Sequence record: DRR378314_1432
Length of the DNA stretch: 33,092 bases
Direction: 5' to 3' (one strand)
Below the pieces are notes generated by a model. It was not told where the DNA came from. It saw only the letters and a program-made list of their open reading frames with translations, and searched no databases. The stretch's first letter is position 1; the number at the start of each line of letters is the position of its first letter. A program made the position numbers and the translations under genes. This document shows positions 17,411 to 23,013 of the stretch, piece by piece.

Positions 17411-18385
17411 ATGCGCGAGCAGTTAGAGCGGCATCAGTCTTGGCTTTACCTGGGATTTATCTGCTTAGGGCTTACGTTGGGTCTGATAGCTCCCTTACTA
17501 GCGTCATCACTTGAACAGCTGTTATGGCCGCTCCTCGGCATACTGCTCTACGCCACCTTTACTCAGATACCGCTATTACATATCAAGCAAAGCGTTACCG
17601 ATAAACGCTTTATGGCAGCGCTGCTGATTGGCAACTTCATTATCATTCCTGCGCTACTGGGGATGTTGGTGCTAGGTCTTTTAGTAGTGGGGCTACCACT
17701 TCCCCCACCGGTAATGGCGGGTGTTTTGCTAGTGCTACTGATGCCCTGCACAGACTGGTTTATTACTTTCACGCACTTAGGCAAAGGCGATGCCGCCCGG
17801 GCTGTTGCGGCAACACCACTGCTGCTGCTCATCCAAATGGTCGCACTGCCCGTTTATCTGTGGCTATTTTTAGGCGGAGAGTGGTTTCAGTTAACCTTTT
17901 CTACCAACCTTCTCAGCGCATTTGCTGGACTGATCCTGCTGCCCTTGAGTTTGGCATGGCTGACAGAACTTGCCGCCAAGCGATCTTCAGCTATCAAACG
18001 CTCTGTGGGCTGCCTCATTTATTTACCAGTGCCGCTGCTAGCACTGGTGGTGTTCATCATTGCCGCGTCGCAGGTGAATAGCGTGCTAGGGCTTAGCCAT
18101 GTGCTGTGGCAGGTTGTGTTTATCTTTATCGGCTTTTTAGTCATCGCTGGGTTGTTGGGTAAAGCGTTAGGCAGTCTATTCAAACTACCGCTTACCAGCG
18201 CCCGAACACTTGCCTTTAGTTTTGGCACGCGCAATTCGTTTGTCATGCTGCCCATTGCGCTTACCCTGCCCAATGGCTGGCAAGCCGCGGTAGTCGTTAT
18301 TGTTTTTCAATCGCTAGTGGAGTTATTTGGCATGATAGCGTTGATACGCTGGGTGCCCGGCAAGCTAATTCCGAGCCAGCTATAA
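17411..18385 (+). CDS. Acr3/SBF (BART superfamily) transporter, arsenic-resistance-protein-like
   Basis: About 10 TM segments, GNF, LMPCTDWFITFT.LGKGD with the conserved Cys, RNS, QSLVEL. Confidence 0.8.
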   Translation: MREQLERHQSWLYLGFICLGLTLGLIAPLLASSLEQLLWPLLGILLYATFTQIPLLHIKQSVTDKRFMAALLIGNFIIIPALLGMLVLGLLVVGLPLPPPVMAGVLLVLLMPCTDWFITFTHLGKGDAARAVAATPLLLLIQMVALPVYLWLFLGGEWFQLTFSTNLLSAFAGLILLPLSLAWLTELAAKRSSAIKRSVGCLIYLPVPLLALVVFIIAASQVNSVLGLSHVLWQVVFIFIGFLVIAGLLGKALGSLFKLPLTSARTLAFSFGTRNSFVMLPIALTLPNGWQAAVVVIVFQSLVELFGMIALIRWVPGKLIPSQL

Positions 18386-18435: not shown

Positions 18436-19293
18436 TTAACGCAATATCAGTACCGGAATTCGGCTACCGCGTAACATCGCTGTGGTGGTACTGCCGACCA
18501 GCAAGTGGCGAATACGCGAGTGGCCATAAGCGCCCATCACTAGAAGGTCGATCGCATGCTCCTGCTCGTACGCTTGCAAGGTGTCGTCTACCTCACCGGA
18601 ACGGATGGCGCCTTCGGCTTGGTGGCCGGCATCGCGTAGCGTCGTCAACGCCCAATCAAGCTCGCTGCGGTGCTCGGCGGTTTCAGCACCCACAATCAGC
18701 ACATGGCATTCGGTACCGGTAAATAACGGCGAACGCGCCAGCATTTCCACCCCTTTACGGGCAGTTTTGCTACCGTCAAACGCAATCAGTACCTTTTCAG
18801 GTTGCTTAAAGGCTTTGGGCACCATGAGCATTGGGCGATGCATTTCACGCACCACACGCTCAAGGTTAGAACCTAGGTGGCCGCTGGCGTGGTGAGCGGT
18901 TTCACCACGCTTGCCTACCACCAACAAACGTATGTCTTTCTCTAGCTCTACCAAGGTTTCGACCAGCGTGCCGTTAAGCTGGCGAATAATGGGATCAACG
19001 ACCCCATCTTCTACTGCCCGTGCCTTGGCAGCTTCCAGCATAAGCTTGCCTTGTTCACGGTTTACCTTAGCGCGCTGTTCATCAAGCTCAGAAAGCTCTT
19101 TCATCAAGCGCTCGCGGGCACCAAATCTTAGGTTACCCGACAAATTTTGCTCTGCTGGCACATCAGAATGATTGTCCACCACATGCACAAAGCTAAGCGG
19201 CGCATTTAATGCCAAGCTTGCCCAAGCGGCGTAGTCACAGACGCTTTCTGCATACTGGGAGCCATCAATCGCGGCGAGTACGTGTTCAGTCAT
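18436..19293 (-). CDS. Universal stress protein (tandem USP domains), copy 2
   Basis: Same motifs as 15604..16458; 19 bp downstream of sulP with an AAGGAG SD. Confidence 0.92.
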   Translation of the reverse strand: MTEHVLAAIDGSQYAESVCDYAAWASLALNAPLSFVHVVDNHSDVPAEQNLSGNLRFGARERLMKELSELDEQRAKVNREQGKLMLEAAKARAVEDGVVDPIIRQLNGTLVETLVELEKDIRLLVVGKRGETAHHASGHLGSNLERVVREMHRPMLMVPKAFKQPEKVLIAFDGSKTARKGVEMLARSPLFTGTECHVLIVGAETAEHRSELDWALTTLRDAGHQAEGAIRSGEVDDTLQAYEQEHAIDLLVMGAYGHSRIRHLLVGSTTTAMLRGSRIPVLILR

Positions 19294-19312: not shown

Positions 19313-20803
19313 TTAGTGGCCGCCCATTAGCTTTTCAACTGCTTCAGGGTCGTTGTGTACCGCGTAACGATCTACCACGGTGGCACTGGCTTCACTCAAG
19401 CCCACCAGCTCCACCTCAGTACCTTCACGACGGAACTTAATCACCACGCGGTCCAGGGCCTGAACAGCGGTAATATCCCAGAAGTGGGCACGGGAAAGGT
19501 TGATGGTGACCTTATCGATGCTCTCTTTAAGATCGAAGGCCGCAATAAAACGCTCAGAAGAGGCAAAGAACACTTGGCCAACTACTTGGTATTCACGCTC
19601 TTTACCGGGCTCTACTTCTTTCGAGCCGATATACAGGATGTTGCCAACTTTATTAGCAAAGAACATCGCCGCCAGCAGTACACCGACAAAGACACCAATC
19701 GCTAAATTGTGCGTCCCAACAGTCACCGCTACTGTGGCTAGCATAACGATATTGGTACTCACCGGATGTTTTTTAAGGTCGCGAATCGACTCCCAGCTAA
19801 AGGTGCCTATCGATACCATAATCATCACCGCTACCAGCGCTGCCATAGGAATCTGCGAGACCCAATCAGCGAGAAAGACCACCATCAACAACAGAACAAC
19901 ACCAGCGATAAGCGTTGAGAGTCGAGTCCGGCCACCGGATTTTATGTTGATGACTGACTGACCAATCATTGCACAGCCTGCCATACCGCCCAGTAAACCC
20001 GATCCGATATTAGCGATACCCTGACCTTTACACTCACGGTTTTTATCGCTGGGTGTATCCGTTAAGTCATCAACAATGGTGGCTGTCATCATAGATTCCA
20101 GAAGGCCCACCACCGCCAGCATGATGGCGTAGGGAAAAATGATCATTAGCGTTTCTAAATTAAGCGGCACGCTAGGCCATAAGAACATTGGCAGTGTATC
20201 GGGCAGTTCGCCCATATCACCTACCGTGCGTATATCCATGCCGCTTACCATATACACCCCGGTAAGCACCACGATGCATACCAGAGGAGAAGGGACCGAC
20301 TTTCCAATCGCCGGCAAGTACGGGAAGAGATAGATAATGCCTAAGCCTGCTAGCGTCATGGCATACACATGCCACGTCACATTAGTTAACTCAGGCAGTT
20401 GCGCCATGAAGATTAATATCGCTAGCGCATTCACGAACCCGGTGACCACCGAGCGGGATACAAAACGCATCAGCTCTGCAAGTTTTAAGTAGCCTGCGAT
20501 AATCTGTAATACCCCAGTCAATAGCGTGGCCGCCAGTAAGTACTCCAGGCCATGTTCGCGAACTAAGGTAACCATCAGTAGCGCCATCGCACCGGTAGCT
20601 GCTGAAATCATACCCGGGCGACCACCAGTAAAGGCGATCACTACCGCGATACAAAACGAGGCGTATAGGCCCACTTTGGGGTCAACGCCCGCAATAATCG
20701 AAAATGCAATCGCTTCAGGAATTAGCGCTAGGGCAACAACGATGCCTGAGAGCGTGTCGCCTTTGATGTTAGAGAACCACTCTTGCTTACTGAAAAGTGC
20801 CAT
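19313..20803 (-). CDS. SulP/SLC26-family anion transporter with STAS domain
   Basis: [45 protein letters not shown] domain [12 protein letters not shown]. Confidence 0.93.
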
Positions 20804-20958
20804 TCAGGGAGTCCATAGTTGAAGGTGAAACACTACGCACTACCGCCACACCGAGGTGAAACGAGAACGCGCAATTAAGCGAATAGGTTGTCAAAACAGT
20901 GCTGCATCACGAAGATACGGGGCAGCATCAATAGCCAATGAACGGCCATAGGATGCAC

Positions 20959-20994
20959 AAGCGCCGACATAACGCGATAGGCGTCATGGCGCTT
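20959..20994 (-). promoter_or_regulatory. Stem-loop in the sulP 5' leader
   Basis: Minus strand AAGCGCC-ATGACGC-CTATC-GCGTTAT-GTC-GGCGCTT: two 7-bp helices with a 3-nt bulge and no U tail. Confidence 0.55.
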
Positions 20995-21013
20995 ATATAA
21001 AGGAGGGAGTTAC

Positions 21014-21061
21014 TTAGGGCGGAGTCATCAGCCCAGAAAAGATGTGAGTAAATGCAGTCAT
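21014..21061 (-). CDS. Putative leader peptide MTAFTHIFSGLMTPP upstream of sulP
   Basis: Manually read ATG ACT GCA TTT ACT CAC ATC TTT TCT GGG CTG ATG ACT CCG CCC TAA. It lies between an extended -10 and sulP. The SD is weak. Confidence 0.5.
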   Translation of the reverse strand: MTAFTHIFSGLMTPP

Positions 21062-21110
21062 AAGTAATATTCTGTACGGTTGCAATAAGCAAGGTGCGAC
21101 AAAGCGCAGC

Positions 21111-21119
21111 ATTCTAACA
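21111..21119 (-). promoter_or_regulatory. Extended -10 element (TGnTAGAAT) for the leader-sulP-usp transcript
   Basis: Minus strand reads TGTTAGAAT, about 50 nt upstream of the leader ATG. Confidence 0.45.
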
Positions 21120-21329
21120 GCATCACAGCCGCATTGCATCTCACGCCACTCTGGTAGTCCACACTGTGATACGCGCTGATACGCCCCCACCTCTACTTAG
21201 GCAGGGTGACCTCGCGACTGATTGTGGCGTACCATTGCGCCACCAGAAACGATGACAATTGCCAACGTTTTATGTTGAAGCGGCACACATAGTCACGTGC
21301 CGAATATGCCCGCCAAAGAGGAGAAATAG

Positions 21330-22346
21330 ATGATGAGTCAGTCAATTGCGGTGATTAAAGGCGACGGTATCGGCCCCGAAATTATGGATGCCACCCTGCG
21401 CGTACTTGATGCGCTGGAGTGCGGCCTGAATTATGAGTTTATCGATGCTGGCCTGGCGGCGCTTGAAAAACACGGCACGCTGATTCCTCAAGAATCGCTT
21501 GATGCCATCGAGAAGTACGGTATTGCCCTGAAAGGCCCGCTGACCACCCCTATTGGCAAAGGTTTCTCCTCCATCAACGTGCAACTGCGTCGTCATTTTG
21601 ACTTGTACGCCAACGTGCGCCCGGCGATTAGCTTCCCCGGTACGCGTTCGCGTTACAACGATATCGATATGATTACCGTGCGGGAAAACACCGAAGGTGC
21701 CTACCTCTCTGATGGCCAAGAGATGATTGACGATGGCAATACCGGCATCTCAGTCATCAAGGTAACCCGCCAGGGTTCCGAACGCATTGTGCGCTATGCG
21801 TTTGAGCTAGCAAAAAATAACGGCCGTAAAAAAGTCACCGCTGTACATAAAGCTAACATCATTAAAACCAGCTCTGGCCTGTTTTTGGATGTCGCTCGGG
21901 AAGTCGCCAAAGAGTATCCCGAGATCGAATTCCAGGAAATGATTGTAGATAACGCCTGCATGCAGCTAGTGATGAATCCGCACCAGTTCGATGTCGTTGT
22001 CACCACCAACCTGTTTGGCGATATTCTTTCTGACCTATGTGCTGGACTAGTGGGCGGATTAGGCTTGGCGCCCGGTGCTAATATCGGCGAAAAGGCTGCT
22101 ATTTTTGAAGCAGTTCACGGTTCTGCACCGGATATTGCCGGACAAAAAATCGCCAACCCTTGTGCCCTGCTGTTAGCAGCCGCCCAAATGCTTGACCACT
22201 TAGGCATGAACGAAAAAGGTGACGCGATTCGTCACGGAATTCGCGCGGTACTGGAGACACGCCGCGATATGGTGACACCCGACATGGGCGGCACCGGCAC
22301 AACCGATACATTTGCCCAAGCGCTCGTAGAGCACTTAACCGCTTAA
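21330..22346 (+). CDS. icd: Isocitrate dehydrogenase, short (~335 aa) probably NAD-dependent type
   Basis: GDGIGPEI, KGPLTTPIGKGFSSINVQLR, RENTEG, VHKANI, NLFGDILSDL, FEAVHGSAPDIAG; GAGGAG SD. Confidence 0.85.
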   Translation: MMSQSIAVIKGDGIGPEIMDATLRVLDALECGLNYEFIDAGLAALEKHGTLIPQESLDAIEKYGIALKGPLTTPIGKGFSSINVQLRRHFDLYANVRPAISFPGTRSRYNDIDMITVRENTEGAYLSDGQEMIDDGNTGISVIKVTRQGSERIVRYAFELAKNNGRKKVTAVHKANIIKTSSGLFLDVAREVAKEYPEIEFQEMIVDNACMQLVMNPHQFDVVVTTNLFGDILSDLCAGLVGGLGLAPGANIGEKAAIFEAVHGSAPDIAGQKIANPCALLLAAAQMLDHLGMNEKGDAIRHGIRAVLETRRDMVTPDMGGTGTTDTFAQALVEHLTA

Positions 22347-22443: not shown

Positions 22444-23013
22444 TTGCCTATCTCCTCACAGCAAGCTGCCGAACACTTCAGCCATATGCGACCTCGCCTG
22501 CTTGCATTTGCACGCTTGCAGCTTAGAGAGAGTGCTGCCGCTGAAGATGCCGTTCAGGAAACGTTGCTCACCGCGTTTGAAAAAACCAGTTCATTTGAAG
22601 GGCGCTCAGAATTTGAAACCTGGGTATTTGGCATCTTGAAATTTAAGATACTTGACCATCTGCGCCAGCAGAAAAAACAGGGGCGCTGGCAGCCGCTAAA
22701 TGACTCAATCGACGAGGACACGTTAGACCGGCTATTCAAATCAAATGGGCATTGGCAGGCCAGCGCCCGCCCGCACGACTGGGGAGAACCTGAGCATATT
22801 TTAGAGAACCAGCGCTTCTGGCAAGTGTTCGATGCCTGTTTAATAGCACTACCCGACAGTATCGCGCGGGTATTTACCTTACGAGAACTGATGGGATTAT
22901 CGACACAGGATATTTGTAAGGAACTCGACATAACAGAAACTAACTGCTGGGTTATCTTACACCGAGCACGGTTAAGGTTAAGAGCCTGTTTGGATAACGG
23001 CTGGACTCAGTAG
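22444..23013 (+). CDS. ECF-type sigma-70 factor
   Basis: Region 2 AEDAVQETLL..FEGRS..TWVFGILKFKI; region 4 VFTLRELMGLS..IC..L.I...NCWVILHRARLRLR. Confidence 0.9.
   Translation: MPISSQQAAEHFSHMRPRLLAFARLQLRESAAAEDAVQETLLTAFEKTSSFEGRSEFETWVFGILKFKILDHLRQQKKQGRWQPLNDSIDEDTLDRLFKSNGHWQASARPHDWGEPEHILENQRFWQVFDACLIALPDSIARVFTLRELMGLSTQDICKELDITETNCWVILHRARLRLRACLDNGWTQ

Follow-up and report, generated by a model that had tools for sequence, protein, structure and literature searches.

A candidate leader peptide with a conserved Thr-Pro-Pro-stop end upstream of the sulP-usp genes

The 33,092-nucleotide stretch of sequence record DRR378314_1432 analysed here (the window), whose host genus is Vreelandella/Halomonas, carries on its minus strand a gene for a SulP-family transporter (sulP) followed by a gene for a universal stress protein (usp). 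A 526-nt intergenic gap (20804-21329) separates sulP from a divergent isocitrate-dehydrogenase-type gene (21330-22346, plus strand). The transporter scores below the NCBIfam cut-offs of the three models with which it was compared, sulP, DauA and BicA. Orthologues in different genera, Pseudomonas, Vibrio and Aeromonas among them, share 74-99% identity with it, and a Usp-like gene flanks sulP in 96 of the 101 unique loci. Within the gap, between a putative promoter and the start of sulP, lies a 15-codon open reading frame (ORF) that ends Thr-Pro-Pro-stop, and it is this frame and the leader around it that are described below.

An earlier, sequence-only reading of the region had listed an extended -10 element, the 15-codon frame, a pyrimidine tract after its stop codon, a two-helix hairpin and a sulP start with only a weak Shine-Dalgarno (SD) sequence, and each of these is present on the minus strand (Table 1). 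From the position of the extended -10 element and its G+C-rich discriminator, transcription would start near 21104; a simple promoter scan of the window returned no -35/-10 pair. The hairpin (P1) folds as predicted, at -22.1 kcal/mol (z = -4.08, with 0/200 shuffles as stable). The SD sequence of sulP, UGGA at 20815-20812, binds at -3.0 kcal/mol, which places it in the median class. A repeat of the heptamer ACTCCCT had also been pointed out; both copies are where they were said to be, at 21010-21004 behind the stop codon and at 20812-20806 just before the sulP ATG (20803), but the heptamer itself is not conserved in relatives, which share only the C-richness at both places.

Table 1. Genes and leader features of the sulP-usp region, in window coordinates unless another locus is named.
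Feature	Position	Strand	Description and basis
sulP	19313..20803	-	496-aa SulP-family transporter with STAS domain, uncharacterised subfamily; Pfam Sulfate_transp 3.4e-58, STAS 1.4e-10
usp	18436..19293	-	tandem universal stress protein, same orientation, 19 nt after sulP; Pfam Usp 1.1e-34, two stretches
Extended -10 element, TGTTAGAAT	21111..21119	-	read from the sequence; followed by G+C-rich discriminator GCTGCGC
5' leader block, CTTTGTCGCACCTTGC	21089..21104	-	conserved in part of the genus: window (WIN), L001, L008, L011-L013, L016, L021, L041
Leader peptide ORF, MTAFTHIFSGLMTPP-stop	21014..21061	-	15 codons plus TAA; ATG at 21061, TAA at 21016-21014
Conserved core, ACT CCG CCC TAA (Thr-Pro-Pro-stop)	21014..21025	-	codon counts over 70 loci
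Small hairpin of the last six ORF codons (GGGC...GCCC)	21017..21034	-	predicted; lineage-specific
C/U-rich, G-poor tract right after the stop, GTAACTCCCTCCTTT	20999..21013	-	candidate segment resembling a Rho utilisation (rut) site; composition over 70 loci
Pyrimidine tract, CTCCCTCCTTT	20999..21009	-	read from the sequence
Two-helix hairpin P1	20956..20997	-	helices 20996-20988/20965-20957 and 20987-20981/20975-20969
Hairpin P2	20925..20956	-	predicted; minimum free energy and centroid folds of the leader
Hairpin with the weak sulP SD and second ACTCCCT	20807..20844	-	predicted; 11-bp helix 20844-20832/20819-20807
Pseudomonas mobile version of leader plus sulP	L061 850-2700		100% identical on many Pseudomonas plasmids

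SulP was matched in 39 of the 41 genomes of the same genus and order that were searched. The orthologue set combined 30 loci from genomes of this genus and order with the best 80 of 593 confirmed loci from named species and the window itself; removal of nine identical upstream regions left 102 unique ones, the window included, and individual loci are cited below by number (L001 and so on). A short frame ending in (Thr/Ser/Leu)-Pro-Pro-TAA/TAG, on the sense strand and 40-450 nt upstream of sulP, is found in 70 of these 102 leaders, compared with 0/102 in the antisense control and a mean of 1.0 (maximum 4) per 102 in 20 rounds of shuffling. Across the ~812 kb of locus sequence, both strands included, the motif has 86 matches, 69 of which are the leaders and the other 17 lie elsewhere. 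The 70 carriers, spread over many Gammaproteobacteria, fall into 17 named genera that range from Vreelandella to Pseudomonas, Vibrio and Aeromonas; no carrier was seen in ten of the named genera sampled (Marinomonas, for example, 0/4), and Marinobacter has three among eight. Because kin are not independent, the carrier counts overstate the number of events, and genera are the safer unit. Carriers stand on both main branches of the SulP tree (101 rows, L049 being left out), which suggests that the frame is an old feature that has been lost repeatedly, or that it has moved with the gene.

The genus-type 18-mer of the element occurs exactly once in each of five genomes, and a composite pattern of Thr-Pro-Pro-TAG plus the C-rich tract matches in eight of 41 genomes, always at a sulP leader, with no control matches. 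A sequence-only covariance model of the 41-nt core, run against 151 genomes that each stood for one family of the class, scored the nearest genome's own sulP leader at 24.5 bits and gave only three other, weak matches (15-17 bits), which are chance-like and lack a SulP gene within 1.5 kb; so short a model is not suited to mapping the distribution. Comparison with Rfam, in which the sul1 motif had been named as a possible match and is expected to be included, gave nothing relevant for window positions 20500-21600 at E up to 10 and nothing for 16 related loci at E up to 0.1. Our literature search found no description of a leader peptide for sulP or sup-uspA, though subscription journals and supplementary small-ORF or Ribo-seq lists might contain one.

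In the 70 leaders that carry it, to which the counts below refer, the motif behaves as the end of a reading frame. An in-frame ATG that gives at least six residues without an intervening stop is present in 58 loci, against 6 and 11 in the other two frames, and 69 have an in-frame ATG, GTG or TTG. Third codon positions of the Thr, Pro and Pro codons vary while the residues are kept: residue -3 is Thr (ACG 33, ACT 26, ACA 1), Ser (AGT 6) or Leu (CTT 4), the codon for Pro(-2) is CCG in 44 and CCA in 26, and that for Pro(-1) is CCC in 56, CCA in 8 and CCT in 6. A conserved short frame with synonymous variation in its Thr-Pro-Pro end was what the sequence-only reading had proposed to look for in relatives, its absence to count as a refutation, and it is found in them. 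Residue -4 is hydrophobic (M, I, P, A, L and similar) and never Arg. Before the last four to seven residues the N-termini are unrelated between lineages, and the peptides range from 6 to 23 residues, as in MTLSNSTQALSTSGLMTPP, MLTLQNMIWLPTPP, MNKSHTGVTVTPP, MSLTPP and MHITPP; the Pro codons are limited to a pair that always comes last, with no run of Pro codons elsewhere. We therefore regard it as likely, on comparative grounds, that the leader contains a functional, translated regulatory upstream ORF (uORF).

The choice of stop codon is strongly skewed, with TAG in 63 leaders, TAA in seven (among them the window) and TGA in none; TGA was seen only in two dubious extra loci, which lack a start or are chance-like. 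For comparison, TAG ends four of the 27 long open frames in the window. The base that follows the stop is C in 44 loci, G in 16, A in 6 and T in 4. Thr, Ser or Leu before Pro-Pro is described as the weakest context for polyproline stalling dependent on elongation factor P (EF-P), both in vitro and in vivo (PMC4176338), and this context, together with the predominance of TAG, points to the termination step and not to an elongation pause of the RAPP or MgtL kind. The pattern argues for a frame built to reach its stop codon quickly and then to terminate slowly, through release factor 1 (RF1) acting on a Pro-Pro end, and we judge it somewhat more probable than otherwise that termination is the sensitive step. 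The sequence-only reading had proposed a functional leader peptide with an important Pro-Pro-stop end; that part gains strong comparative support, whereas the likeness to RAPP- or MgtL-type elongation pausing is disfavoured.

Stop codon read-through, or a +1 frameshift at CCC-UAG, was considered and rejected, no frame being kept open beyond the stop (median distances to the next stop of 30, 26 and 24.5 codons); leaders with CCA or CCT as last codon, moreover, cannot slip.

Directly behind the stop codon, from +5 to +19 counted from its first base, the leaders are C/U-rich and nearly free of G; at +10 to +14, G occurs in 0-4 of the loci and C in 39-53. Over the first 30 nt after the stop the fractions of C and G are 0.41 and 0.18, against an upstream background of 0.27 and 0.29, and C exceeds G in 69/70 loci over these 30 nt and in 70/70 over the first 80 nt, the tract starting 2-5 nt after the stop. 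Ensemble folds predict it to be mostly unpaired. Given the known geometry of the ribosome footprint, a ribosome resting on the stop codon would cover roughly the first 10 nt after it. L043 (Vreelandella utahensis) has lost the mini-ORF and keeps a long pyrimidine tract, CTCTCCTTCTCCGTTTCCCTCCC, between promoter and sulP, ~70 nt upstream of the latter, so that the C/U-rich tract may act in its own right.

Past +20, what the leaders have in common is generic: a stable hairpin or two, in many cases with U-rich sequence behind, a combination flagged in 43/70 by a loose script. Three of the leaders that had been flagged, L085 (Aeromonas media), L030 and L070, were chosen on that account for a terminator scan, and in 3/3 a canonical terminator-like hairpin with a U-run was confirmed; the scan found none in the window leader. 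The distance from stop codon to sulP varies from ~59 to 360 nt. By analogy, a degenerate spacer behind a conserved core is the look of a Rho-dependent attenuator and matches the logic of tnaC and speFL.

The 306-nt window leader as a whole is more structured than its shuffles (z = -3.54, 0/100 as stable). In both its minimum free energy and centroid folds, 21100-21093 (GUCGCACC), within the conserved 5' block, pairs with 20852-20845 (GGUGUGGC), closing the whole leader into one domain; this predicted partner, GGUGUGGC, sits just upstream of the ribosome-binding region of sulP. A hairpin of different sequence is visible at the place of P1 in single-sequence folds of relatives. RNAalifold gave no consensus pairs for 31 Halomonadaceae leaders, for which the MAFFT alignment of the variable leader is poor, and no conserved alternative pairing was found in the alignment, in the single-sequence folds or in a folding test with a ribosome on the stop codon. 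The last six uORF codons can fold into a small hairpin, which is GGGC/GCCC in Halomonadaceae and has equivalents in UGGC/GCCA of Pseudomonas (L061 987-1004) and UGGAAG/CUUCCA of L017 and L024 (L017 3093-3110), and in L013, L018, L020 and L052 a TTG (Leu) codon co-occurs with a CCA (Pro) codon in an apparent compensatory change. AT-rich lineages keep ACG-CCR-CCY-TAG without a hairpin partner. The small hairpin may thus be a lineage-specific addition, possibly an RNA polymerase pause hairpin like that of speFL.

Upstream of the small frame, an extended -10 element of the form TGNTANNNT is present in 48/70 loci, compared with 1/70 on the antisense strand, and it is followed in every case by a G+C-rich block of the GCGC (GCNGCGC) type. 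This discriminator is kept even in genera that have short leaders without a mini-ORF, for example L022, L095 and L099. GC-rich discriminators are typical of stringently controlled promoters, and the feature deserves notice given the dksA-like gene beside sulP-usp in the mobile version of the locus described below.

We tentatively propose, with a confidence a little short of even, that the leader encodes a translated peptide with a regulatory role in cis. It would belong to a new family whose defining mark is a hydrophobic-Thr-Pro-Pro-UAG end, and in which slow termination shields an adjacent Rho-loading tract. The conserved extended -10 element would start the sulP-usp mRNA ~43 nt before the mini-ORF. 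A ribosome would read the 6-23 codons and arrive at the stop, its P site occupied by peptidyl-Pro-Pro-tRNA and its A site by UAG (UAA in the window), where release would be slow by reason of the C-terminal proline, the restriction to RF1 and the poor UAG-C context. The lingering ribosome would cover the first part of the G-poor, C-rich tract, which would otherwise serve as a Rho entry site, as in tnaC and speFL, and RNA polymerase would then cross the leader of roughly 60-300 nt into sulP-usp, so that a pause would mean ON. With prompt release the tract would be exposed and transcription cut short; in a few lineages an intrinsic terminator just behind the tract might make the cut. Rho is the likeliest effector, a part of the scheme that we hold with distinctly less than even confidence. 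The layout of the leader, its conservation, the coding-type variation, the stop-codon bias and the excess of C over G are observed, whereas translation, pausing, the involvement of Rho, the polarity and the signal are inferred.

The signal could be anything that alters the rate of RF1-catalysed release on Pro-Pro, or some ligand. The rate of release by RF1 reportedly depends on RF1 abundance, on S-adenosylmethionine (SAM)-dependent methylation of the GGQ motif by PrmC and on cytoplasmic pH. One could therefore picture the leader as a ligand-free gauge of termination capacity, in which a peptide of at least six residues ending Thr-Pro-Pro-UAG reports the rate of RF1 hydrolysis on its hardest substrate, peptidyl-Pro-Pro-tRNA, and a shortfall of sulfur or SAM, a shift in pH or growth arrest lengthens the pause and turns on an anion transporter together with a stress protein; we offer this as a long shot.

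Several observations weigh against the proposal of a termination-paused, Rho-shielding peptide. The frame is absent from 32 of the 102 orthologous leaders and is thus dispensable. The SD sequence of the mini-ORF is mostly poor (9/69 at -6 kcal/mol or better, and -2.7 in the window), that of the sulP start being no better (3/69 at the same threshold). The strongly C-rich part spans only ~15 nt, short for a complete rut site, and in Vibrio and Photobacterium leaders only ~60 nt are left before sulP. Our search pattern itself prescribes the first two bases of each Pro codon, so that the independent evidence lies in motif frequency, start codons and wobble variation. Lastly, a 21-nt block is almost invariant within the genus, where selection on peptide and on RNA are consequently inseparable, and position -6 alternates between Gly (GGG) and Trp (UGG), which has the look of a constraint on nucleotides rather than on residues. 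This near-invariance, the GG kept at -6 and the apparent compensatory changes in the small hairpin (GGGC/GCCC, UGGC/GCCA, and TTG with CCA) would suit an RNA- or DNA-level element in which the frame is incidental, be it a pause hairpin, a site bound by a protein or a small RNA, or a C-rich seed through which a short attenuated transcript acts in trans; three lineages have what would amount to a self-contained small transcript, made up of promoter, mini-frame, C-tract and terminator. Such an element would account neither for the excess of in-frame starts nor for wobble positions that vary while residues are kept, its hairpin partner is absent in the AT-rich lineages that nonetheless keep ACG CCR CCY TAG, and it has no matching Rfam family; we consider it improbable. 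A constitutive uORF that senses nothing, whose translation keeps Rho or nucleases off a long leader or sets a basal level while regulation occurs at the promoter or at uORF initiation, would agree with the conserved promoter and discriminator, with the repeated loss of the frame without loss of the operon, and with a peptide that can be six residues long and is conserved only in its last three or four, which leaves little room for a ligand pocket. A plain spacer, however, would need no invariant Pro-Pro, preceding Thr, TAG stop and C-tract over 17 genera, and we think this explanation unlikely.

The two Pro codons invariant in 70/70 motif-bearing leaders, partly by construction, would also fit a sensor comparable to MgtL/mgtP that gauges proline supply or EF-P activity by a pause in elongation; a shortage of Pro-tRNA or EF-P, for instance under osmotic stress, would slow the ribosome at these codons, and this pause, not termination, would set the fate of the leader; many of the hosts are halophiles, and mgtL-type leaders with Pro codons provide a precedent (table entries for the mgtA and mgtCBR uORFs in PMC12360218). 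In a sensor of this kind neither the identity of the stop nor the +4 base would matter, yet TAG dominates and TGA never occurs, and the only two Pro codons, always last and with no other Pro run, follow the residues weakest for EF-P-dependent stalls. We rate it as rather unlikely. Much the same standing, if anything slighter, is given to a translational switch of the ermC type, in which the ribosome-binding site of sulP would be masked or released through alternative pairings of the C-tract or of the region under the paused ribosome. In the short leaders L017 and L038 the tract is predicted to pair with the SD/AUG region of sulP (13.4 and 9.6 of 22 nt of pairing mass), and in the window the sulP SD lies inside a predicted 11-bp helix. 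Across the 70 loci, on the other hand, the tract shows no general complementarity to the sulP start and was rejected as an anti-SD (mean z +0.42; cognate -6.15 against non-cognate -6.20 kcal/mol). A ribosome bound at the stop, rejected likewise as an accessibility switch, alters how accessible the sulP start is predicted to be by a mean of -0.011 (up by more than 0.1 in 1/70, down by more than 0.1 in 5/70), and the distance between stop and sulP is variable (~59 to 360 nt). Pairing between the tract and the sulP start may hold in L017 and L038 only.

Comparison with known systems places the sulP leader nearest to the termination-step leader peptides. A peptidyl-Pro-Pro-tRNA is a poor substrate for release factors: Escherichia coli proteins that end in Pro-Pro are SsrA-tagged, and uORF2 of cytomegalovirus UL4/gp48 ends Pro-Pro-stop. 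The chemical principle is the one proposed here for the sulP leader, but the former are ordinary proteins in which the effect is an unregulated by-product, the latter is a viral uORF that acts on scanning ribosomes in eukaryotes, and neither is a conserved bacterial operon leader. The trpL, hisL and pheL attenuators have a run of regulatory codons and mutually exclusive antiterminator and terminator hairpins, the latter ending in a U-run; the sulP leader has only two Pro codons, and a U-run hairpin in the three chosen lineages. To our knowledge few natural bacterial termination-step leader peptides have been described, namely TnaC, SpeFL, PepNL and those of the MsrDL type, and each has taught something about the gating of the ribosome. 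TnaC has 24 residues, of which the conserved Trp12, Asp16 and Pro24 form a tryptophan pocket. By inspection, without an alignment, these residues have no counterpart among the sulP leader peptides, which differ further in their UAG or UAA stop (RF1) where TnaC uses UGA and RF2, in their Pro-Pro end, in conservation limited to the last three or four residues and in a length that falls to six residues. The likeness to TnaC is that an operon for catabolism and transport has a short uORF in its leader, and the conserved frame behind a conserved promoter, with its excess of in-frame starts, is of the kind seen in TnaC and SpeFL.

In both tnaC and speFL the rut site adjoins the stop codon and is masked by a ribosome held there (10.1101/604074, PMC12360218); in tnaC that site is given as lying directly beside the stop, with a spacer of ~200 nt before the first gene (PMC12360218). 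SpeFL, from the Gammaproteobacteria, is a parallel in arresting on UAG with RF1 blocked and in the masking of its rut site by the stalled ribosome, and its pause hairpin includes the 3' end of the uORF (10.1101/604074). It differs in its length of 34 residues, in binding ornithine through separate sensor and effector domains, and in that all three stop codons occur among its orthologues (10.1101/604074); TGA is avoided in the sulP leader, which also lacks a conserved N-terminal domain, and a sensor part of the TnaC or SpeFL type was not found in it, the N-termini being unrelated between lineages. Peptides of the RAPP/RGPP type (CruR, ApdA/ApdP; SecM with RAGP) share the Pro-Pro at the arrest point, and CruR controls a transporter operon through Rho (PMC9426467). 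These peptides need Arg-Ala/Gly before Pro-Pro, however, where the sulP leader has Thr (60), Ser (6) or Leu (4) at -3, a hydrophobic residue at -4 and a stop rather than a sense codon immediately after; CruR, moreover, is described as having 145 residues, a CXXC metal sensor and its RAPP at 139-142, not directly at the stop (PMC9426467). The table of uORF-mediated Rho attenuators in a 2025 review names tnaC, mgtA, corA, mgtCBR, speF, cruR, his, mdtJI and topAI, and sulP is not among its entries (PMC12360218). The sulP leader very probably represents a family not yet described, and would work like TnaC and SpeFL without their conserved sensor domain.

The leader is also present on mobile DNA. 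A Pseudomonas version of the L061 type (MLTLQNMIWLPTPP-stop), together with sulP, is 100% identical on many Pseudomonas plasmids, with 105 matching records, of which 50 reach at least 99% identity. In plasmid pPC9 (L111, NC_019906.1 64238-76088) sulP-usp-dksA has a mer operon on one side and a class 1 integron on the other; its gene table, which is incomplete, shows no small ORF before sulP. The plasmid-borne sulP-usp-dksA matches the backbone of Tn1403-family transposons, described for Tn1403 as sup-uspA-dksA-yjiK (PMC6399125). Because the leader-sulP-usp-dksA module sits unchanged in these transposons, whatever the leader senses would be read on mobile DNA as well. If the proposed reading of a slowly terminating leader peptide is right, this would be the smallest and most widespread termination-step leader without a known ligand, and the first regulatory handle on a highly conserved and uncharacterised SulP-Usp pair; a leader defined by a three-residue end and the identity of its stop codon would be easily dissected by mutation and toeprinting.

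Some further observations concern the surroundings of the window locus. In four public RNA runs only long contigs of a ~96%-identical relative are present, and these span the whole sulP-leader region, giving no indication of transcript start, end or level. Contigs of the same relative join window position 18480 straight to 19305, a skip of 824 nt, from which it appears that this strain has sulP without the usp gene. Beyond usp, at 17411-18385 on the plus strand, lies a gene for an SBF-family transporter (bile acid/Na+ symporter type), and downstream of the divergent dehydrogenase gene, at 22444-23013 (plus strand), one for an extracytoplasmic function (ECF)-type sigma factor with Sigma70_r2 and r4_2 domains.

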